NCBI GenBank assembly: GCA_944372665.1
Contig: CALVZV010000048.1
Span: 1-11,113 of the forward strand
DNA length: 11,113 nt
Direction: 5' to 3'
Source of the DNA: an uncultured Clostridia bacterium
GTDB taxonomy: Bacteria; Bacillota; Clostridia; Christensenellales; DTU072
The notes beneath the pieces were generated by a model. The model was not told where the DNA came from and ran no database searches. It worked only from the letters and a program-made list of their open reading frames with translations. Positions within the stretch are counted from its first letter, which is position 1. Every line of letters starts with the position of its first letter. The translations under genes were made by a program, and so were the position numbers. Shown here one piece after another: positions 66 through 10,442 of this stretch.

Positions 66-98
66 AAAAAAGCCGGCATGACGCCGGCTTTTGCTTTT
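66..98 (-). terminator. Rho-independent terminator (bidirectional hairpin) downstream of the 445-aa SPFH-like gene
   Basis: Plus strand has aaaaa-AGCCGGC-atgac-GCCGGCT-tttgctttt, a 7-bp GC-rich stem. Read on the minus strand the hairpin is followed by TTTTTTGG, immediately 3' of the stop at 123-125. Confidence 0.7.
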
Positions 99-122: not shown

Positions 123-1460
123 TTATTTGTTTTCGTTCGTCTTTCCGTCGCCGGCGCTGTCGGCGGCGCTGTCGGCGGCGCTGTCGGGTTTGCTTACGCT
201 TATCTCGGTCAGTTTGCCGCTGCGGGTAAAATAGTTCTTTTTGATGAAGAACGTGGCTATGCCGGCCGCCGCGAATATTATCGCCAGCACCAGACCTGCC
301 GGCACCGAAGCGATCATGACCAACAGGCTTATGAATACCAGCACGCCCGTAATCGCGCAAAGCGCGATGAGCCTTTTGTTCTTTCCGGGTTCGGGCAGCG
401 TCTCTATCACGACAGGCTCGGCGGTCTTGACCAGCTCTTCGGCGGGCGCCGCGTTCTCGGTGCGTTCGGACACGCTTTCCTTATCCAGCTGCAGACGTTC
501 TTCGCTGTATTTTTCCATTCTTACCAGATAGCGTTTCAGCGCCAGATCTTTTTCGGCTTCCGTCAACGTCACGGGGAAATTGGGATATTTTTCGTGTATC
601 TCGGCTTTCTTTTTGTAGTTTTCCAGCGATAATCCCGCGATATCGTTCTCCATTTCCTTTTTCATTCTTTCGATCTGTAACGCATAAAACTGCTCCGTGA
701 TCGACTCGTACATATTGTCCGCAAAAGAAATGCTCTGAATATTCACGTCGGATATCTCGGCGCCGTATTTAGAGAGTTTTAGGTTCAGCGCGTCGGCGAG
801 AGCCTCTTTCAGCTCGCCGTATTCGGCGCTCAGTTTATAAAATCCGATCTGCTTGGAATCTATGAAATCCTGAAGCACGCGCCTGTATTCGGTATTGATC
901 AGGTCGAGTAACGCTTCCAGAGCGTCGGGCAGATTTACGGACGCTACCTTGACATCCAGAAACCCGAAAAATTTGCACGCATCGTTGAATTTTACGGAAA
1001 CGCGCATATTCGTCAGCAGCGACGCGGGGATGCGCAAATCGCGGTCGAAATAGTATACTTCCTCTCCTTTATGCGAAACGTAATTCAGTGTAAGCACGAG
1101 TTTGTTGTCCATGCTCTGTTTGAGTCTGAACTTGTCGCCCTTCCATTTTTCGGATGTATCCTCGAACCGCTTTAACAGATAAATCTGCGCTATTTCGTCG
1201 AAATACTGCGGTTCACTAAGATAAATGAAATTGGAATACTTTTTGGAAACGGCGTCTAAAAGTATTTTTTTGCCGAATTTATCGAGTTTGCCTACCCCGG
1301 CAAGCAGCGACGGCTTCTCGGCGATCGCCGCTTCCAGCGCCTGTTTTTCGTAAATATCGTCGTAGTTAATTTCGCCAACGGCTTTTTTGCCGGCTATCAA
1401 AGCCAATGTAATTTGTTTTACGTTTTCTGCTTTTTTGTCGTTTTTGCTTTGGATATCCAT
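123..1460 (-). CDS. SPFH/band-7-like membrane protein (YdjI/COG4260-like), 445 aa, with a C-terminal two-helix transmembrane hairpin and a DSAA-repeat tail
   Basis: ATG at 1460 is preceded by GGGAGGAG with a 6-nt spacer. The central region has an SPFH-type signature (…KLSKYGAEISDVNIQSISFADNMYESITEQFYALQIERM…). Two hydrophobic helices lie near the C-terminus (LIALCAITGVLVFISLLVMIASV / AGLVLAIIFAAAGIATFFI). The stop is TAA at 123-125. Family assignment is from motif recall, not a search. Confidence 0.6.
   Translation of the reverse strand: MDIQSKNDKKAENVKQITLALIAGKKAVGEINYDDIYEKQALEAAIAEKPSLLAGVGKLDKFGKKILLDAVSKKYSNFIYLSEPQYFDEIAQIYLLKRFEDTSEKWKGDKFRLKQSMDNKLVLTLNYVSHKGEEVYYFDRDLRIPASLLTNMRVSVKFNDACKFFGFLDVKVASVNLPDALEALLDLINTEYRRVLQDFIDSKQIGFYKLSAEYGELKEALADALNLKLSKYGAEISDVNIQSISFADNMYESITEQFYALQIERMKKEMENDIAGLSLENYKKKAEIHEKYPNFPVTLTEAEKDLALKRYLVRMEKYSEERLQLDKESVSERTENAAPAEELVKTAEPVVIETLPEPGKNKRLIALCAITGVLVFISLLVMIASVPAGLVLAIIFAAAGIATFFIKKNYFTRSGKLTEISVSKPDSAADSAADSAGDGKTNENK
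153..188 (-). repeat. 12-bp perfect tandem repeat (3 copies; ggcgctgtcggc x2, then ggcgctgtcggg) inside the 3' end of the SPFH-like CDS; encodes DSAA-DSAA-DSAG
   Basis: Direct reading: positions 153-164 and 165-176 are identical and 177-188 differs only at the last base. A partial fourth unit lies at 146-152. Confidence 0.9.
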
Positions 1461-1475
1461 GTCTTCTCCTCCCGT

Positions 1476-1670
1476 TTAAAATAAATAAGTGCTGCACATT
1501 CTGCATAAAGCGTCGTCCGCGTCGTTAGGACATCCGCATACCGGGCATATCTTTTTCTCGGATTCAGGCTCGGTACAGGCGGATTTATTCTTTAAGCGGT
1601 CGATCTCCTCGGAAAGCAGCCTGTTTTCGAGTTTCAGGTACTGCATTGCCGTCATGTCGTTATCTTCCAT
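1476..1670 (-). CDS. Small coiled-coil + zinc-ribbon protein (64 aa), first gene of the operon with the SPFH-like protein
   Basis: ATG at 1670 is preceded by GGAGGTG with a 5-nt spacer. The six-frame-track ORF extends to a TTG at 1691, but the SD supports the 1670 ATG. The C-terminus is CPVCGCPNDADDALCRMCSTY (CxxC…CxxC zinc ribbon). The N-terminal half is heptad-like (LKLENRLLSEEIDRLKNK). The stop is 15 nt upstream of the next gene's SD/ATG. Confidence 0.65.
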   Translation of the reverse strand: MEDNDMTAMQYLKLENRLLSEEIDRLKNKSACTEPESEKKICPVCGCPNDADDALCRMCSTYLF

Positions 1671-1706
1671 CTTTTCACCTCCGTTATCCAAAAAATGACT
1701 AAATCT

Positions 1707-1735
1707 ATTTTAATCCCGCGTTCAACAGATGTCAA
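1707..1735 (-). promoter_or_regulatory. Consensus sigma-A promoter (TTGACA-17-TAAAAT) for the zinc-ribbon/SPFH operon
   Basis: Minus strand reads gttgTTGACAtctgttgaacgcgggatTAAAATagattt. The -35 is the complement of 1730-1735 and the -10 is the complement of 1707-1712. The predicted TSS is ~30 nt upstream of the ATG at 1670. Confidence 0.6.
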
Positions 1736-1783: not shown

Positions 1784-1814
1784 TAAAAAAACCGCCCGCT
1801 TGTCTGCGGGCGGT
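1784..1814 (-). terminator. Rho-independent terminator after the DUF3794/LysM gene (bidirectional hairpin)
   Basis: Plus strand has aaaaaaa-ACCGCCCGC-ttgtct-GCGGGCGGT-tt. On the minus strand the 9-bp GC stem is followed by TTTTTTT, 10 nt after the stop at 1825-1827. Confidence 0.8.
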
Positions 1815-1824
1815 TTAACGAGGA

Positions 1825-3288
1825 TCACTCCGCTTTGTAATAAAGAATCTTGTCGCCCGTCCTGACGGGAAGCGTCATCGCGGGATTCATGCGCTTGAGC
1901 TCTTCTTCGTCGGAATTCAACGCTTTGGCTACCTCGAAAAGCCCTTCTCCGTCGCCTACGACGTAAAGACTTATCACCAGATCGTCGTCGGCGGGCTTGT
2001 CCGCTATCTCGACGACAGAGGCGAGATACTTTAATTCCTCTTTGGTTTCGGAATATACTGTCGAAACTATTTCGCCGGTGATTTCCACGGTCCCGCCCTG
2101 CCTGAGCCGCGCCGAATACTCCTGAACGGAGGCCGACACCATGACCGACGACGGGCATACGCCTTTGGCGGCGGTTTCGCTCCTGAACGGTATTTCCGCA
2201 TAAACGCGCACGGGCTTGCCGGAATCGTCCTCGCAGATGATTTCCGCACCTATGACTCCTTCGATAACGACGGGATCGGCAGCCGATACCCCCAAAGCGC
2301 ATATCGCGGGAGCGCCGAGCGCCGCTATGCTCCTGACGTTTTTGTCCTCGGATACGGCGGCGTTGCCGAAAAACTTTATCTTCTCGCTGATGCCGCATAC
2401 GTCGCAGGTCACCTCGGCAACTCCGTATTCCGCTTGTGTCACCTTGGTGCGCGAGTACGCGTCGGTGACTATCTCGGTTTCGACCTCGTTTATCGCATAG
2501 CCCGACACGCTTACGGCGGCTTCGACTTTTAGCTCTCCGCCAGATTCCGTCGGAGTGAACACCACGCCGGCGTTCACCTTTACGGGTAACGGGAACACCT
2601 TTGAGCTTTCCGTGACGCCCGGGGTCAGCAATTCTTCCTCGAACGGAGTACGCATCACGTATCCGAACATTTTTTTGTCGGATATGTACCTGACATATGT
2701 ATACAGAACGCCCCCTATTTTGGTTATATCTGTCGCTGTAGATACCGAATCAATCTTTATCGACGACTCGGTAAACACTACTTCGTCAACGCTTTCGTGT
2801 ACGAAATCACCGCCCTCGACGATAAATTCGCCGCCTTTTACCGGCTCTGCGACACATATCGGCGCGGTTTCCTTTTTCAGACACATGTTGTCCGCCGTAA
2901 ACGCGTTTTCGAATCCGGCGCTTTCTATCGCCACGCCGGACACTTCCAGCATGATGCGGACGCGGAGCTTTAACGTACCCACGAATTCCGTGGAAACGAC
3001 CCCCGCCTCGGCTATAACGAAGCCGGATTCGTTCAGAAAGGGCGCGGACAATCTGACCGTTTCCGTCCTGACGTCCTTGACTGAGGCAAGTCCGTCCGCG
3101 CAGGCATAAATTACGGCGTAATCTATCGTAGTGACGACGTCGGCTGCGCCCTGAGAGGGCGTAACGCTATCCACGCGCGCTTTTGCCTGAACGGAAACGA
3201 CCTCCTCCGCGTCGTTCAGTTCCATGTCAGTATCGACATAGGTCTGGACGGGCTGCAGTTTTTTGACAGTATCACATTTGACGTACAT
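1825..3288 (-). CDS. DUF3794-like repeat protein with C-terminal LysM domain (SipL/SpoVID-like sporulation protein), 487 aa
   Basis: ATG at 3288 is preceded by AGGGGG with a 7-nt spacer. The C-terminus YVVGDGEGLFEVAKALNSDEEELKRMNPAMTLPVRTGDKILY fits the LysM pattern (Y.V..GD.L..IA…L…N…L..G..L). The body is acidic and beta-rich with a repetitive V/E/T composition, typical of DUF3794 proteins. Sits immediately downstream of veg. Confidence 0.6.
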   Translation of the reverse strand: MYVKCDTVKKLQPVQTYVDTDMELNDAEEVVSVQAKARVDSVTPSQGAADVVTTIDYAVIYACADGLASVKDVRTETVRLSAPFLNESGFVIAEAGVVSTEFVGTLKLRVRIMLEVSGVAIESAGFENAFTADNMCLKKETAPICVAEPVKGGEFIVEGGDFVHESVDEVVFTESSIKIDSVSTATDITKIGGVLYTYVRYISDKKMFGYVMRTPFEEELLTPGVTESSKVFPLPVKVNAGVVFTPTESGGELKVEAAVSVSGYAINEVETEIVTDAYSRTKVTQAEYGVAEVTCDVCGISEKIKFFGNAAVSEDKNVRSIAALGAPAICALGVSAADPVVIEGVIGAEIICEDDSGKPVRVYAEIPFRSETAAKGVCPSSVMVSASVQEYSARLRQGGTVEITGEIVSTVYSETKEELKYLASVVEIADKPADDDLVISLYVVGDGEGLFEVAKALNSDEEELKRMNPAMTLPVRTGDKILYYKAE

Positions 3289-3353: not shown

Positions 3354-3641
3354 TTAAATTTTCCTTTTGAAAAACAGCACGTTTTTCGAAAGCACGTCCG
3401 CATAGCTGAAGCTCGAAAGCCCGCCGTCGGCGTGTCTTAACGTGAATACGTTGGGATAAGTGGCTTCGATCTCGCATTCCAGCCGCTCTATCCTGTTCCT
3501 TCCCCGGTTGATTTTTACGGTCAGCGGATAGCCTTTCAGCTTGTTCAGTCTGTCGATTGCAAAAGAGGTGTCGTTGATGTTTTGGTTGCTTCTCATAAGA
3601 GAAGTTTTACCCCGGAGACGATTTATAAACCTTTTCGGCAT
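3354..3641 (-). CDS. veg: Veg (DUF1021) family protein
   Basis: …IDRLNKLKGYPLTVKINRGRNRIERLECEIEATYPNVFTLRHADGGLSSFSYADVLSKNVLFF aligns to B. subtilis Veg (…[39 protein letters not shown]…SYSYADIL…). The start is ambiguous. The ATG at 3641 has no SD and abuts the ileS terminator. An internal ATG at 3596 would give an 80-aa product and is equally plausible. Confidence 0.85.
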   Translation of the reverse strand: MPKRFINRLRGKTSLMRSNQNINDTSFAIDRLNKLKGYPLTVKINRGRNRIERLECEIEATYPNVFTLRHADGGLSSFSYADVLSKNVLFFKRKI

Positions 3642-3691: not shown

Positions 3692-6600
3692 CTATCTGTT
3701 CACGGGCGCCAGCTTTACGGTGACGGTACGGTCCTGGATCGAGAACGACTGTTCCGCTTCAGGCGACTTTACGTCACCCGTTTCGCTTGCCAGAATATCG
3801 GCGGCGATCTTGTCGCGGTATTTTTCTATCGCTTGCAGCGCGAACTCGTCTTCGGTTTCGAACGACGCCACAATGCGTTGTTCGACGGCGAAGCCCGCTT
3901 CCTTTCTCATGACCTGGATAAGCCTTATCAATTCTCTTATAAAGCCTTCCGCGGCGAGTTCGTCGTCCAGTTCCGTATCCAGCGCAAGCGTGATCTCGGC
4001 GTCTTTGGCGACGACGAAATGCTCTTTGGGTCTGAAGTGGCGATCGAACAGATCGGCTCCCAGTCCGCTGAAGTCGCCGATGTCCACGCTGTCTGCGGCT
4101 ACGGCTTTGTCCAACGCGGCGAAGCCCGCATTGTCCAGCGAATCGACCAGCTTTTTAAGGCGCTGCGCTTCGCCTTTAAGCCTTGCGCCGGCAACCCTGA
4201 AATTGACGGTGAAATAAACGTCGTTGTATGCCGTTTCGTCGGCGGTAAAGCTAAGCTTTTTGACGTTGAGCTCCTCCTTTATCACGTCCGCCAGCGGCAA
4301 AGCGGCTTCCTTCACGCCGTCGGGAGCGGTGACAAACAGATTTTTCAAGGGCTGTTTGACCTTGATCTGCGCTTCGTTGCGCATACGCTGCGCGGCGGCG
4401 ATTATACGGCGCGCGGTCACGGTTTCTTCAAGCACCGTCTTGTCTTCGGGAATTTCAGCCGGGACGGGATAATCCGTCAGATGCACGGATTCGGGAGCGT
4501 CCTTTTCGATCTCGCGTACTGTGTTTTGATATATATAATCGGTTATAAAGGGCGTGATGGGCGCCATAATTCCGATAACCGACTTCAGCGCGAAATACAG
4601 CGAAGCGTACGCGTTCATCTGGTCGAGTTTGTCGGTCGATTTCCAGAATCGCTTACGGTTGATACGTATATACCAGTTGGATACGTCGTCCACGAACACT
4701 TCGAATTCCTTTATCAGGGCGGGATGACGGAAAGTATCCATGGCGTTACGCGCGAACTTAATAAATTCGTTGGTGCGCTGCAGCAGCCATTTGTCGGAAT
4801 GTTTCAGCGAAGCGTAATCGAGCTTGTGAGCCGCTATATCGGGGTTGTCGATGGAGGCGTACAGATTAAAGAAAACATATATGTTCCAGAATCCCAGTAT
4901 CTTTCTTCTGGCCTCGTCCGCAAGCGAATATCCGAAACGCACGTCCGAAGCGATAGGATTGGACATAAACAGATATCTGACTGTATCCGCGCCCATCTTT
5001 TCCGCCGCGTCGTCGAAACGGATCATATATCCCGTCTTGCTGAATTTGCCGCCGTCTTCCTTTATGACGCTGGAGTGCGCGACAACCTGTTTATAAGGCG
5101 CCTTGCCGGTCAGTGCGACCGACATGAACAGCAGCGAATAGAACCACAGTCTGATCTGCTCTTTCATCTCGATGACCAGGTCGGAGGGGAAATTGTTTTC
5201 GAAATACTCCTTGTCCTCGAAATATTTTTTGGTCGAGAACGGCGTAATGCCCGCGTCCAGCCAGCAGTCGCCCACTTCGGGGATCCTTTCGACCGGCTCT
5301 CCGCACTCTTCGCAGTGGATCCTGATCTTGTCTATATATGGTTTATGCAGATGCGGCACGCCGTCTATGTTGCCGTGCTCGCTGCGCATGATAAGCTCTT
5401 CCTTGCTGCCGATGACCGTAACGTGTCCGCACTTTTTGCAGACATAGAACGGCAGCGGCAAACCGTAGAAACGCTTGCGGCTTATATTCCAGTCGCCCAT
5501 ATTGTTCAGCCAGTCCAGCATCCTCTTTCCCGCATATTCGGGTTCCCATTTCACGGTTTTGGCTGCCTCAATCATCATCGGACGGATTTCGGAAGTGTCG
5601 ATGTTCCACTCGTCCACCAGTTTGAACACCACGGGAGTCTTGCACCTCCAGCACTTGGGATAGCTGTGGGTGTACATTTCGGTTTTGTACAGTTTGTTCT
5701 GCTTTTCGAGTTCGTTCACTACGTCGTCCACGAGGTCGGTGGTTTTCATGCCGCTGAAGCGGCCGAATCCCTCCGTGATTACGCCTTCGTCGTCTATGGG
5801 GCAGATAGCCGGAATACCGTTTTTCCTGCCCAGTTCGAAGTCCTCGGCGCCGCAGCCGGGAGCGATATGCACCACACCCGTGCCTTCCGTAGCGTCGACG
5901 TCCTCCCACGCGTAAATTTTATGAGTAAAGTTCTGAACTCCGAATCCGGGGAAGCAGGTCTCGTATTCCCTGCCCACCAGCTCGGCGCCCTTGAAAGGTT
6001 CTCCGACTTCGACGATGTCGCCCTTTAATTTTCCCAGGGCGTTCTTGCCGACGATGAGCGGCGAAGTATCGGACTTGACTTTCACGCGTACGTATTCGAT
6101 TTCGGGGTTTACCGCAAGCGCCGCGTTCGCGGTCAGAGTCCACGGGGTGGTCGTCCATAAAATTATCTTGTCTTCAGTTCCCTTCACGGGAAGCTTGGCA
6201 AATATCGACAGATGCTCCATTTCCGCATAGGAGCCGCTCATTTCGTGATCGGAAAGGCTGGTTCCGCAGCGCGGGCACCAGGGCATCGGACGATGCGATT
6301 TCTTTATCCAGCCGCGCTCGGCGCATACCTTCAGAAAATGCCATATCGACGTGATGTTCAGATCCGTGTTCGTGAAATAGCTGTGTTCCCAGTCCATCCA
6401 TTGTCCAAGACGCTTGGACTGTTCCGTGATGACGCCGGCGAATTTTTTTACGCGGTCCATGCACTTTTCGGTGAACCTGTCGACTCCGTAATTGACTATG
6501 TCGGATTTGACCTTGAATCCGAGGTCCTTTTCGGTTTCCACCTCCACCCACAGTCCCTGCGAGTCAAATCCGTTCTGGTACTGACAGGACTTGCCGAGCA

Positions 6601-6817
6601 TGGCGTTGTAGCGGATATACATATCCTTCATCGTCCTGCCCCAGGCGTGGTGTATGCCCATCGGATTGTTGGCGGTTATCGGTCCGTCCAAAAAGCGGAA
6701 GCGTTCGCCGTTCTCGTTCTTTTTGACGAGTTTTACAAAACAAGCGTTCTTTTCCCAGAACGCAAGCATCTGTTTTTCGATTTCGACAAAATCTGTTTTA
6801 GCGTTTTCCTTTCTCAT
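3692..6817 (-). CDS. ileS: Isoleucine--tRNA ligase, type 2 (eukaryote-like, no C-terminal zinc finger), ~1041 aa
   Basis: CP1 editing-domain signature WTTTPWTLTAN is specific to IleRS (LeuRS and ValRS have TTRP[DE]T). The IleRS-specific motif DWNISRKRFYGLPLP matches the DWCISRQRYWGVPIP-type consensus. The anticodon-binding WYIRINRKRFW motif is present. KFSKT stands in the KMSKS position and PMGIHHAWGRTMKD in the HIGH position. The start is set at ATG 6817 (MRKENAKTDFVEIEKQMLAFWEK…), the usual IleRS N-terminus. The six-frame-track ORF extends to 7165 but overlaps the divergent lipoprotein gene and has no start there. Confidence 0.9.
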   Translation of the reverse strand: MRKENAKTDFVEIEKQMLAFWEKNACFVKLVKKNENGERFRFLDGPITANNPMGIHHAWGRTMKDMYIRYNAMLGKSCQYQNGFDSQGLWVEVETEKDLGFKVKSDIVNYGVDRFTEKCMDRVKKFAGVITEQSKRLGQWMDWEHSYFTNTDLNITSIWHFLKVCAERGWIKKSHRPMPWCPRCGTSLSDHEMSGSYAEMEHLSIFAKLPVKGTEDKIILWTTTPWTLTANAALAVNPEIEYVRVKVKSDTSPLIVGKNALGKLKGDIVEVGEPFKGAELVGREYETCFPGFGVQNFTHKIYAWEDVDATEGTGVVHIAPGCGAEDFELGRKNGIPAICPIDDEGVITEGFGRFSGMKTTDLVDDVVNELEKQNKLYKTEMYTHSYPKCWRCKTPVVFKLVDEWNIDTSEIRPMMIEAAKTVKWEPEYAGKRMLDWLNNMGDWNISRKRFYGLPLPFYVCKKCGHVTVIGSKEELIMRSEHGNIDGVPHLHKPYIDKIRIHCEECGEPVERIPEVGDCWLDAGITPFSTKKYFEDKEYFENNFPSDLVIEMKEQIRLWFYSLLFMSVALTGKAPYKQVVAHSSVIKEDGGKFSKTGYMIRFDDAAEKMGADTVRYLFMSNPIASDVRFGYSLADEARRKILGFWNIYVFFNLYASIDNPDIAAHKLDYASLKHSDKWLLQRTNEFIKFARNAMDTFRHPALIKEFEVFVDDVSNWYIRINRKRFWKSTDKLDQMNAYASLYFALKSVIGIMAPITPFITDYIYQNTVREIEKDAPESVHLTDYPVPAEIPEDKTVLEETVTARRIIAAAQRMRNEAQIKVKQPLKNLFVTAPDGVKEAALPLADVIKEELNVKKLSFTADETAYNDVYFTVNFRVAGARLKGEAQRLKKLVDSLDNAGFAALDKAVAADSVDIGDFSGLGADLFDRHFRPKEHFVVAKDAEITLALDTELDDELAAEGFIRELIRLIQVMRKEAGFAVEQRIVASFETEDEFALQAIEKYRDKIAADILASETGDVKSPEAEQSFSIQDRTVTVKLAPVNR

Positions 6818-6911
6818 GCCGCCTATTTTAGCACATATAAAACGTAAAGTAAAATAATTTATATAATTTGCACGTTTTAAAGGGGCACGCCGCGCTCCGG
6901 AGTCAGATGCG

Positions 6912-6940
6912 TTGACAAAAAGCGCCGGAACGGATAAAAT
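6912..6940 (+). promoter_or_regulatory. Consensus sigma-A promoter TTGACA-17-TAAAAT directly abutting the lipoprotein ATG (leaderless geometry)
   Basis: ttgaca at 6912-6917, an exact 17-nt spacer, taaaat at 6935-6940, then atcagat ATG (6948). The -10 to ATG distance is 7 nt. Confidence 0.6.
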
Positions 6941-6947
6941 ATCAGAT

Positions 6948-7433
6948 ATGAAAAAATTTCTCGGCTTGGTTCTGATATGCGTGCTGTGCGTTTCCACGGC
7001 GTACCTCGCGCTTGCGTGCAAACGCTCCGAACCTTCCGACGGCGATATCGCCGAAACGGTCTGCGAACACGATTTCGTCGCCGCGGAAAGCGAGCTGAAC
7101 CGCCCCGCCACGCATACGTCCGAAGGCAGACAATACGTCGTTTGTTCTAAGTGCGGTTTTTCCAAACTCGAAATAATCCCGAAACTCGGCTATGAGTCCG
7201 GAGACAAAGCTCCCGAGTTCAATCCGCTTCTGGACGCTTACGAAGGCGTGCCCGCCCGGACGACCTTTAAACAATTCACGGAAAAATACCTTCCTTCGGG
7301 CTGGGCGTTTAAAAACGAAGACGCCGGCGCCGCGATCGCCGACGGCGAATACCTGCTCGTCTTTACCCCGACGACGGAAGGATATACGCCTTTCGAATCT
7401 ACGGTCACGATAAAAACAAGGAGTCCGGAATGA
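6948..7433 (+). CDS. Putative lipoprotein (signal peptide MKKFLGLVLICVLCVSTAYLALA|C), 161 aa
   Basis: N-terminal K-rich n-region, hydrophobic core, and a Cys after …LALA (lipobox-like). The stop TGA overlaps the next ATG in an ATGA arrangement. The upstream TTG at 6912 used by the ORF track is the promoter -35 itself, so the ATG at 6948 is preferred. Confidence 0.65.
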   Translation: MKKFLGLVLICVLCVSTAYLALACKRSEPSDGDIAETVCEHDFVAAESELNRPATHTSEGRQYVVCSKCGFSKLEIIPKLGYESGDKAPEFNPLLDAYEGVPARTTFKQFTEKYLPSGWAFKNEDAGAAIADGEYLLVFTPTTEGYTPFESTVTIKTRSPE

Positions 7434-8250: not shown

Positions 8251-8290
8251 AAAAAAACCCGCCTCCGGGCGGGTTTTGAATTTATTTTTT
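8251..8290. terminator. Bidirectional Rho-independent terminator shared by the convergent SDR (+) and 8282-9025 (-) genes
   Basis: aaaaaaa-CCCGCC-tccg-GGCGGG-ttttgaatttatttttt: a GC stem with an A-run on one side and T-runs on the other. Confidence 0.8.
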
Positions 8291-9025
8291 CTTTTTCGCT
8301 TCTTTTTCCGCTGCGATGCTTTTTTCCAGATATTCGCCTAAAGCCGTCATCTTCTCCTCAAGATAGCATGTTATGCGCTCAGTTTCCTGTTTCAGGGGCG
8401 CTTCGGGGTCGAATACGGTAGGCTCGCCCATCACCACGCGGCGCGATTTCGGATCGCAATAGCTGGGATAGAATTTCAGTATCTTGCCGGTTTCTTTATA
8501 ATAATAGTACGCCGAGTACGCGAAACCGCGCTGAAAACGCTTTAAATACTTGTTCATCGGCGTATCTTTGGTTTCGGGCGTGATCATCACTTTATTGCCT
8601 TCTTTCAGCGCTTTTACGGTGGCGTTATACGTTTCCCTGACTCTAAGATCGTGCCACGCGGGAATGGTGTCATAGCTGACGAAATAGAGATTTATCAAAG
8701 GCATCAGGATATATGCCAGCGGCATCAGAAAGCCCAGCTTGGTTACTTTGGCAAGCACGTTCTTGAAATGGTCTATTCCGTCTTTATAAGTTCTGAGCTT
8801 GGCGTTCGACCAGAAATTGAGCTTGTCGCCGTAAAACAGCTCGTATGCGAACGGCGCCTGAAGCGTGGTGTGATTGCACAAGATTATGCATGGCTCGCTC
8901 GGCTTTTCCACCAGGAATTCAAACGTGGCTTTTCTGGCGAAAAAACCTATCGTCTTGTTCAAGCACGTAGCGAATTTACCGTATTTTCTTTTATTAAAGT
9001 TAAGTTTAGCCATCTGCACATACAA
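8282..9025 (-). CDS. Hypothetical protein with weak lysophospholipid-acyltransferase (PlsC/LPLAT)-like motifs, 247 aa
   Basis: CNHTT… loosely resembles the HX4D block but lacks the Asp. VMITPETKD loosely resembles FPEGTR. A hydrophobic segment (LGFLMPLAYILMPLINLYF) is present. No SD before either candidate ATG (9025 or 9013). Likely co-transcribed with the upstream cytidylate-kinase-like gene, since no terminator lies between them. Confidence 0.35.
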   Translation of the reverse strand: MYVQMAKLNFNKRKYGKFATCLNKTIGFFARKATFEFLVEKPSEPCIILCNHTTLQAPFAYELFYGDKLNFWSNAKLRTYKDGIDHFKNVLAKVTKLGFLMPLAYILMPLINLYFVSYDTIPAWHDLRVRETYNATVKALKEGNKVMITPETKDTPMNKYLKRFQRGFAYSAYYYYKETGKILKFYPSYCDPKSRRVVMGEPTVFDPEAPLKQETERITCYLEEKMTALGEYLEKSIAAEKEAKKKK

Positions 9026-9849: not shown

Positions 9850-9878
9850 TTGAAATTTTTTTTCCGTGCATGTATAAT
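9850..9878 (+). promoter_or_regulatory. Strong sigma-A promoter TTGAAA-17-TATAAT for the membrane-protein gene
   Basis: ttgaaa at 9850-9855, an exact 17-nt spacer, tataat at 9873-9878 preceded by TG. ~38 nt upstream of the ATG at 9916. Confidence 0.65.
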
Positions 9879-9915
9879 AATTATATTGCAAAAATTTGTG
9901 AAACGGAGGTTTATA

Positions 9916-10442
9916 TGGCTAAAAGTAAAGCTACTTCTGTAAATACCCGCAACGATACCGTTATGGCGGCGCTGGCGTTTATAATCCTCGGCACCATTCT
10001 GGTAGCTGAAAAATCGCTTAATGTGTTAAAACTTGCCGTAATCGTGTTCGGCGTCGCGCTGCTCACCTTGGGTTTATTGGAACTCATAAACCGTAACCTG
10101 ATAGTCGGACTGGCGGAAATAATCGTGGGCGTCGCATTGATAATCATGGCGGCTCTGGTACCGGACATAGCGACGCTGGTGCTTGGAATAGCGCTGTGCC
10201 TTTACGCCATCTATTTCCTTATAATATATTGGAGCTCCCTGACCGGCGGCAAACTCACGCTCAGAAAGGTCATCATTATTCTGCTGATACTGTTCGCGTT
10301 TATTGCAGGCATCCTGCTGATAGTCGAATACTGTGTCGGCGTAGGCGCGGATCTGTGGATCTCCGCAGGCGCGTTCTCTCTGGGAGCAGGTGCTATGCTC
10401 ATTCTCAAGAAATTCGTTTCCGAAGTCAACAGCAAAAAATAA
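9916..10442 (+). CDS. Small polytopic membrane protein (about 5-6 short TM helices, internally repetitive; possibly DUF308/HdeD-like), 175 aa
   Basis: GGAGG SD 6 nt upstream of the ATG at 9916 (MAKSKATSVN…). The ORF-track start at 9870 lacks an SD. Successive ~20-aa hydrophobic segments are rich in small residues (G/A) and Ile/Leu/Val. Confidence 0.7.

Follow-up and report, generated by a model that had tools for sequence, protein, structure and literature searches.

The 11,113 nt window analysed here (positions 1 to 11,113 of contig CALVZV010000048.1, assembly GCA_944372665.1, from an uncultured gut Clostridia bacterium) carries on its minus strand two adjacent genes which code for a zinc-ribbon protein of 64 amino acids (aa) and an SPFH protein of 445 aa. 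The SPFH protein has its membrane anchor at the C-terminus, and the pair represents an undescribed subfamily and architecture inside a well-known superfamily. Judged by its conservation and linkage, the small protein is a real, conserved, and tightly linked partner of the SPFH protein. It is most likely the remnant of a second SPFH subunit and not an equivalent of YdjG, because the deepest relatives encode upstream a full-length paralogous SPFH protein with a ribbon of the same type. An initial annotation of this DNA had described a mini-protein with a CxxC…CxxC zinc ribbon 15 nt upstream of the 445-aa protein; both open reading frames (ORFs) and a spacing of exactly 15 nt were found in the sequence. 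The two genes and the domains of the large protein, as seen in an AlphaFold2 (AF2) model with its per-residue confidence (predicted local distance difference test, pLDDT), are the following.

1476..1670, minus strand: small gene, 64 aa; ATG at 1670, stop codon 1476..1478
123..1460, minus strand: large gene (referred to as B-type), coding for the 445-aa C-terminally anchored SPFH protein
1152..1460, minus strand: N-terminal helical domain (aa 1–103), family-specific; six helices in the AF2 model, pLDDT 80–97
723..1130, minus strand: SPFH alpha/beta domain (aa 111–246); beta-sheet plus helices in the AF2 model
588..713, minus strand: long coiled-coil-type helix (aa 250–291, 42 residues) in the AF2 model, corresponding to the helix that forms the wall of SPFH cages
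519..584, minus strand: signature motif KYPxxxxTLTEAEKDLALKRYL (aa 293–314), the most conserved segment of the family; short helix 301–314 in the AF2 model
378..518, minus strand: low-complexity linker (aa 315–361), poorly conserved; without regular secondary structure in the AF2 model, where pLDDT falls to 62–83
222..377, minus strand: hydrophobic two-helix hairpin (approximately aa 362–413) from a Kyte–Doolittle scan; AF2 helices 362–384 and 386–413

The SPFH protein and its zinc-ribbon partner

The assignment of the large protein to the SPFH proteins, proposed in the initial annotation, was supported by the Pfam search. The protein matches Band_7 (PF01145) with 28.1 bits (cut-off 23.6), with residues 188–269 aligned to profile positions 95–170 of 176, and Band_7_1 (PF13421) with 24.4 bits (cut-off 24), where only profile positions 132–205 of 211 are aligned. 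Both matches are thus limited to the C-terminal part of the models. One or the other match was found in 9 of 10 homologues, the best family member reaching E = 2e-9 against Band_7_1. A sequence search of the PDB with the large protein gave only a weak match (PH stomatin, E = 0.027). The AF2 model, computed from an alignment of 72 sequences, has a mean pLDDT of 87.3. When it was compared to the PDB with Foldseek, the top 40 matches were all SPFH proteins (stomatin, prohibitin, HflK/C, flotillin, QmcA), with E-values down to 1.5e-5. The long helix (aa 250–291) is included in the alignments to stomatin, prohibitin, and HflK/C, which span 200–240 columns. The modelled structure thus contains the SPFH alpha/beta fold followed by a long helix. 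For the N-terminal helical domain (aa 1–103), there was no match in Pfam or NCBIfam and no specific structural match; NCBIfam and PADLOC gave nothing significant for either of the two proteins.

Five residues of the signature motif (E303, K304, D305, A307, and R310) and one of the preceding helix (K285) are invariant in 72 diverse members of the family, and the consensus is LTExEKDxAxxRY. Generic Band_7_1 proteins align mostly within positions 135–285 of the query; one alignment extends to position 354. An outgroup protein which ends in a SHOCT domain suggested that the LTExEKD helix might be a SHOCT-like element, but this idea was dropped as there was no Pfam support for it.

The C-terminal hairpin had also been predicted in the initial annotation, and is seen both in the Kyte–Doolittle scan and as helices in the AF2 model. 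It is conserved: nearly all full-length members of the family have a C-terminal hydrophobic block of 45–50 aa. In the large protein, residues 362–413 are the only hydrophobic block according to the Kyte–Doolittle scan and the AF2 model, and neither revealed an N-terminal hydrophobic segment. The N-terminal anchor which is typical of stomatin, HflK/C, prohibitin, and flotillin is therefore absent. The turn of the hairpin is SVPAG and its flanks (KNKR and KK) are basic. With both ends basic, the positive-inside rule suggests that the entire soluble part, as well as the DSAA-containing tail that follows the hairpin, is cytoplasmic.

The small protein is soluble and has no transmembrane segment. 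Its ribbon (C42-x2-C45-G-x2-N49-x6-C56-x2-C59-S-T-Y-L-F) follows a variable N-terminal helix. The CxxC-x10-CxxC pattern is invariant in 70 homologues, and is predicted to be a zinc ribbon; the invariant residues are C42, C45, G46, N49, C56, C59, S60, Y62, and L63. The Pfam family Zn_Ribbon_1 (PF13240) matches with 17 bits, which is below its cut-off of 25. In the AF2 model, the ribbon has a pLDDT of 83–86. The N-terminal half had been taken for a short coiled coil. This could not be upheld: the model shows a clade-specific, low-confidence helix (residues 8–31, pLDDT ~65), and the N-terminal half is variable across the 70 homologues.

The extent of the family was taken from an exhaustive profile search among 1.84 billion representative sequences, because a word-indexed search with the 72-sequence profile gave just 11 proteins. 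The exhaustive search returned 99 proteins with E ≤ 1e-30, mostly of 400–480 aa and aligned end to end, and the B-type family comprises ~100 clusters at 50% identity. Where the source is named, all genome matches are from metagenome-assembled genomes of uncultured Clostridia (e.g., Candidatus Stercoripulliclostridium). None of the B-type proteins returned (~115, fragments included) contains a CxxC…CxxC pattern. A search with a profile of the small proteins yielded 160 clusters; lengths among the best 120 listed range from 48 to 87 aa.

Conservation and linkage of the small ORF, for which the initial annotation had suggested a comparison of gene neighbourhoods, were borne out by such a comparison. 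A zinc-ribbon ORF is located at most 17 nt upstream of the SPFH gene, or overlaps it, in the window and in the related loci L001, L006–L012, and L025. In L005 and L022, the cut tail of such an ORF is visible at the contig edge. The zinc-ribbon gene is thus directly upstream in every crown-group relative with readable upstream sequence. Gene callers have annotated the 64-aa form on 46 contigs; alternative forms of 71, 59, or 56 aa are not on record among these annotations. In a relative with 52% sequence identity, the NCBI annotation reads "SPFH domain-containing protein" for the large protein and "hypothetical protein" for the small one next to it.

An all-against-all comparison of the ORFs across loci revealed one other gene that is common beyond close relatives. 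It follows the SPFH gene, often overlapping it, in five more distant loci (L001:6242-6811, L009:5161-5652, L010:4068-4640, L011:1603-2130, and L012:5262-5717) and is absent from the clade of the window. This third gene codes for a single-pass membrane protein of 150–190 aa with a Tyr/Ser-rich beta domain. Three of its products share DDDSG(D/I)..NF and most have (T/S)YY(L/I/F), which is reminiscent of pre-peptidase C-terminal (PPC)-type domains; a Pfam match was not found for any of them.

Deep-branching relatives and the origin of the ribbon

Beyond the family, the nearest relatives of the large protein are Band_7_1 proteins of ~300–400 aa, which align mostly over the SPFH core. They have no transmembrane segments and most of them end in one or two fused zinc ribbons. 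The kinship of the SPFH core to YdjI-type proteins, as stated in the initial annotation, is thus retained. Nearly all full-length B-type proteins have the hairpin, and none of those returned has a ribbon in the same chain; most outgroup Band_7_1 proteins show the reverse pattern. The three outgroup matches that are closest to the family (P0120, P0123, and P0126) proved to be encoded directly upstream of its most divergent members (P0112, P0107, and P0117), with gaps of 0–2 nt. Back-to-back SPFH paralogs, A being a Band_7_1 protein with a C-terminal ribbon and B carrying the hairpin, are found at these positions:

L021:1433-3697: paralogs A and B
L023:491-2755: paralogs A and B
L024:3001-5762: paralogs A and B
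L026:1928-4146: paralogs A and B

Such a tandem arrangement of A and B SPFH paralogs appears to be undescribed. The A-type proteins (L021/L023, L026, and L024) have 334–356 aa, belong to Band_7_1, and contain the LTExEKD motif. Two of the three end in CxxC-x10-CxxCSN, and the third is degenerate. The A-type ribbon and the small proteins share the Cys spacing (x2/x10/x2) and the CSN knuckle. Among the generic ribbons listed, none has CxxCS and all but one have CxxCG. When ribbons of the outgroup were ranked with a hidden Markov model (HMM) built from the ribbons of the small proteins, A-type ribbons took ranks 1 and 4.

A neighbour-joining (NJ) tree was computed for the SPFH domain, the coiled coil, and the motif region (205 columns) and rooted on generic Band_7_1 proteins with ribbons. 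In this tree, A and B are sister groups. Within B, the first split separates the members that have a large A partner from all those with a small one. Bootstrap values out of 100 are 99 for A plus B, 97 for B, and 74 for the crown group. The simplest history that we infer begins with a duplication which gave rise to the A/B tandem; in the crown group, including the window, A was then truncated to its ribbon. In the ancestral tandem, paralog A would have been soluble and ribbon-ended, as ordinary Band_7_1/YdjI-type proteins are, and paralog B would already have ended in the membrane hairpin. A Rosetta-stone link between SPFH proteins and the zinc ribbon exists. The initial annotation had spoken of a "split", which would imply fission of the large protein. 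This does not agree with the deepest relatives, where the ribbon ends a second, paralogous SPFH protein which is encoded upstream.

As in other SPFH proteins, assembly of the large protein probably proceeds via its coiled coil and motif region and results in a ring or cage at the cytoplasmic side of the membrane. The invariant charged motif, which both paralogs share, would be a likely contact between subunits. The zinc-ribbon protein would be made together with the large protein and bind to the assembly as an accessory subunit, which is suggested by the existence of fused and paralogous forms and by the tight spacing of the genes. Taken together, an origin from tandem paralogs, a C-terminal anchor, and a ribbon that serves as accessory subunit of an assembly on the cytoplasmic face make up the explanation that we favour, with moderate confidence.

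Several points weigh against this explanation. Against the A-type C-termini, the small proteins score only 10–18 bits, and one generic ribbon scores about equally. As the ribbons are short and their similarity is weak, their homology is argued mainly from gene position and the CSN signature. The tree was computed by a simple method from 205 columns, with 74% support for the key crown node, and the inspected lineages are three with a large partner and about nine with a small one. Geometrically, a canonical SPFH cage is not easily reconciled with a C-terminal anchor that follows the coiled coil. Finally, the gene neighbourhood gives no pointer to a physiological role.

Alternatively, the small gene may have been acquired independently and would not be a remnant of paralog A. 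It would then code for a regulator or adaptor (a zinc/redox-sensing or nucleic-acid-binding micro-protein) which merely shares the operon. Two observations would be expected in this case: the HMM of the small proteins gives generic and A-type ribbons similar scores, and the N-terminal halves of the small proteins do not resemble A-type proteins. However, the small gene occupies the same place as paralog A, immediately upstream and tightly spaced, and this linkage is strict in every locus examined. Also, their ribbons have the same Cys spacing (x2/x10/x2) and CxxCSN knuckle, and CxxCS occurs in no generic ribbon listed. We thus consider an independent acquisition unlikely.

The initial annotation had suggested a module similar to PspA/YdjGHI which acts in envelope stress, with a YdjI-type SPFH protein from which the ribbon was split off as a mini-gene that replaces YdjG. 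A zinc finger is present close to the C-terminus of YdjI itself (PMC8581546), the membrane protein YdjG contains a TF_Zn_Ribbon domain (bioRxiv 10.1101/2021.02.15.431232), and the two proteins work together (PMC8581546; bioRxiv 10.1101/2021.02.15.431232). Together with the C-terminally fused ribbons of the nearest non-family relatives, this speaks for such a module. However, relatives of pspA (PspA/IM30), ydjG, or ydjH were encountered neither in the window nor in any related locus examined. There was also no NfeD match for the small partner and no linked nfeD gene, so that an envelope-stress role is unsupported. The small protein, having no transmembrane segment, does not fit the role of a stand-in for YdjG, and YdjI has its zinc finger in its own chain. 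In the deep relatives, the ribbon is on the second SPFH paralog and not on the hairpin-bearing protein. Moreover, the large protein would be anchored in the membrane on its own, and a receptor like YdjG/H would thus not be needed. A PspA/YdjGHI-like stress module is therefore quite improbable.

The favoured reading, a reduced partner of a C-terminally anchored SPFH protein, can be compared to several known systems. The SPFH core is closest to Band_7_1 (PF13421, COG4260-type), and the order of SPFH domain, coiled coil, low-complexity linker, and terminal module is that of YdjI/SamI from B. subtilis and of Band_7_1 proteins. A functional tie to a zinc ribbon is also shared with YdjI. In contrast to YdjI, which is soluble, has its ribbon in cis, is recruited by YdjG/YdjH, and is encoded in the pspA operon, the large protein has the hairpin as its terminal module, with the ribbon on a 64-aa protein of its own. 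In addition, the N-terminal beta-rich part of Band_7_1 proteins is replaced by the helical domain.

The SPFH domain with a subsequent long wall-forming helix is shared with the heteromeric cage pairs HflK/HflC, prohibitin-1/2, flotillin-1/2, and erlin-1/2. The genes hflK and hflC are encoded back to back, and the deepest relatives (L021/L023, L024, and L026) likewise encode two adjacent full-length SPFH paralogs. Unlike such pairs, the window has an upstream gene of only 64 aa, the second paralog being reduced to a zinc ribbon. All these pairs are N-terminally anchored, and HflK/C faces the periplasm and cages FtsH, whereas the large protein is C-terminally anchored, its soluble part is predicted to be cytoplasmic, and no protease partner is linked to it. 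In SPFH–NfeD operons (E. coli QmcA–YbbJ and the FloT/YuaF type of B. subtilis), an SPFH protein also has a small dedicated partner, and QmcA is among the structural matches of the large protein. However, NfeD is a membrane protein with an OB-fold domain, whereas the partner is here a soluble zinc ribbon.

Operon signals, tandem repeat, and genomic surroundings

The expression signals of the pair and the tandem repeat in the large gene are located as follows.

1789..1816, minus strand: intrinsic terminator of the upstream SipL/SpoVID-like gene; 11-bp stem with 8 GC pairs, then a T run
1707..1735, minus strand: predicted sigma-70-like promoter TTGACA-17-TAAAAT, matching the consensus at 11 of 12 positions
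1676..1682, minus strand: Shine–Dalgarno sequence GGAGGTG preceding the small gene, identified by inspection
1466..1473, minus strand: Shine–Dalgarno sequence GGGAGGAG preceding the large gene, identified by inspection
152..187, minus strand: three perfect 12-bp units (CCGACAGCGCCG) encoding DSAA-DSAA-DSAG; disordered tail, copy number polymorphic
66..92, minus strand: intrinsic terminator after the large gene (AAAAGCCGGC-GUCAU-GCCGGCUUUUUU); 10-bp hairpin plus U-run by RNA folding

The strong Shine–Dalgarno sequences (GGAGGTG and GGGAGGAG) and the promoter had been listed in the initial annotation and are present. The candidate promoter is located in the intergenic gap, just past the terminator 1816..1789 of the preceding gene, which forms the 5′ boundary of the two-gene operon. 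Since the number of promoter-like sites across the region is not above the shuffled expectation, the candidate is to be judged solely by its own quality and position. The terminator after the large gene was obtained by RNA folding and was not listed by a consensus terminator scan. With terminators on both flanks and a promoter of its own, which is similar to the consensus, the pair is predicted to be a discrete and self-contained two-gene operon.

Both ORFs are in one frame (window 1458-1670, minus strand) and are parted by TAA plus four to five codons (…YLF*TGGED-MDIQ…). Read-through of the stop codon of the small gene would thus result in a ribbon–SPFH fusion, in which a spacer of five residues would force the ribbon next to residue 1 of the large protein. 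This arrangement is probably a coincidence because it is not conserved: L001 has an out-of-frame ATGA overlap.

The 12-bp repeat had been reported at 153–188. There are indeed three perfect units, but their true position is 152..187, one base off; Tandem Repeats Finder gives a period of 12 with 3.4 copies at 147..187. Variation in copy number between strains, which had been anticipated, was found: near-identical strains have either two or three units. The 441-aa alleles P0004 and P0005 (98–99% identical) have one DSAA unit fewer (two vs. three copies, in frame), and in a DNA alignment with two P0005 contigs, the deletion amounts to exactly one 12-bp unit. The repeat is a slipped-strand length polymorphism that remains in frame. 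It affects the tail of the protein, which has a pLDDT below 50 in the AF2 model and lacks conservation within the family. That the length changes are in frame and confined to this disordered, non-conserved tail makes a functional switch unlikely. The polymorphism is probably neutral. Phase variation via the repeat was considered and rejected, as unit changes stay in frame and touch only the disordered tail. A terminator-like match on the plus strand (160–187) is an artefact caused by self-pairing of the GC-rich repeat within the coding region.

The gene order in the source genome is ileS, veg, a sipL-like gene, the pair, an ispE-like kinase gene, glgB, and glgC. The sipL-like gene (window 1825-3288, minus strand) codes for a protein of 487 aa, which has a SipL/SPOCS domain (E = 2.8e-8) at its N-terminus and a LysM-like C-terminal end and is likely a spore-coat morphogenetic protein of the SpoVID/SipL type. 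It is preceded by a gene for a Veg homologue (window 3354-3641, minus strand). The presence of these two genes points to a host from a spore-forming lineage of the Clostridia. The mechanically called ORF for isoleucyl-tRNA synthetase (window 3692-7165, minus strand) is overextended by ~115 codons, and its true start is likely at MRKENAKTDF…, near 6820. The C-terminal domain of the enzyme is DUF5915. An Rfam search of the whole window gave no matches, and hence no T-box or other RNA element was found.

Three further ORFs code for proteins without a Pfam match: a 173-aa protein with a lipoprotein-like signal sequence (…LVLICVLCVSTAYLALAC; window 6912-7433, plus strand), a 247-aa protein (window 8282-9025, minus strand), and a 190-aa multi-pass membrane protein (window 9870-10442, plus strand). 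In L025 (GCA_964483825.1), the pair is flanked by genes for a ParE/RelB toxin–antitoxin system and a large T5orf172/ResIII helicase (L025:207-832 and 3888-6379), and may thus sit in a variable or mobile region of that genome.

A function in sporulation, mobile elements, or defence, as hinted at by the upstream SipL-domain protein with its LysM-like C-terminal end and by the ParE/RelB and T5orf172/ResIII helicase neighbours in L025, is highly improbable given that the neighbours differ in every lineage, that the pair is set apart from the sipL-like gene by a terminator and a promoter of its own, and that there is no significant PADLOC match.

Implications for SPFH assemblies

The pair may represent a hetero-oligomer of the SPFH type, with one paralog whittled down in evolution to a zinc-ribbon micro-protein of ~60 aa and the other switched to a C-terminal hairpin anchor; we put this forward tentatively, at slightly less than even chances. 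If true, the ribbon and not the SPFH body would be the indispensable part of the lost subunit. The orientation relative to the membrane would then differ from that in all solved SPFH cages. To our knowledge, every SPFH cage with a solved structure (HflK/C, QmcA, flotillin, stomatin, and prohibitin) is tethered N-terminally. A subfamily with a hairpin after the coiled coil would thus test how general N-terminal tethering of SPFH proteins is. We found no papers on COG4260 in the literature, and none that deal with bacterial SPFH proteins anchored at the C-terminus. A role in membrane scaffolding or in the upkeep of membrane integrity is only a guess.

The practical impact is limited for now, as the family is small, so far confined to uncultured Clostridia, and without a known phenotype. 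It illustrates how a multi-domain subunit may be reduced to a micro-protein which is annotated just as "hypothetical". The pairing of SPFH protein and zinc ribbon comes in three forms: in cis (Band_7_1/YdjI-type proteins), on a paralog (the deep relatives), and as a micro-protein (the window). This conserved pairing may offer a tractable route to the role of the unexplained C-terminal zinc finger in YdjI-type proteins.

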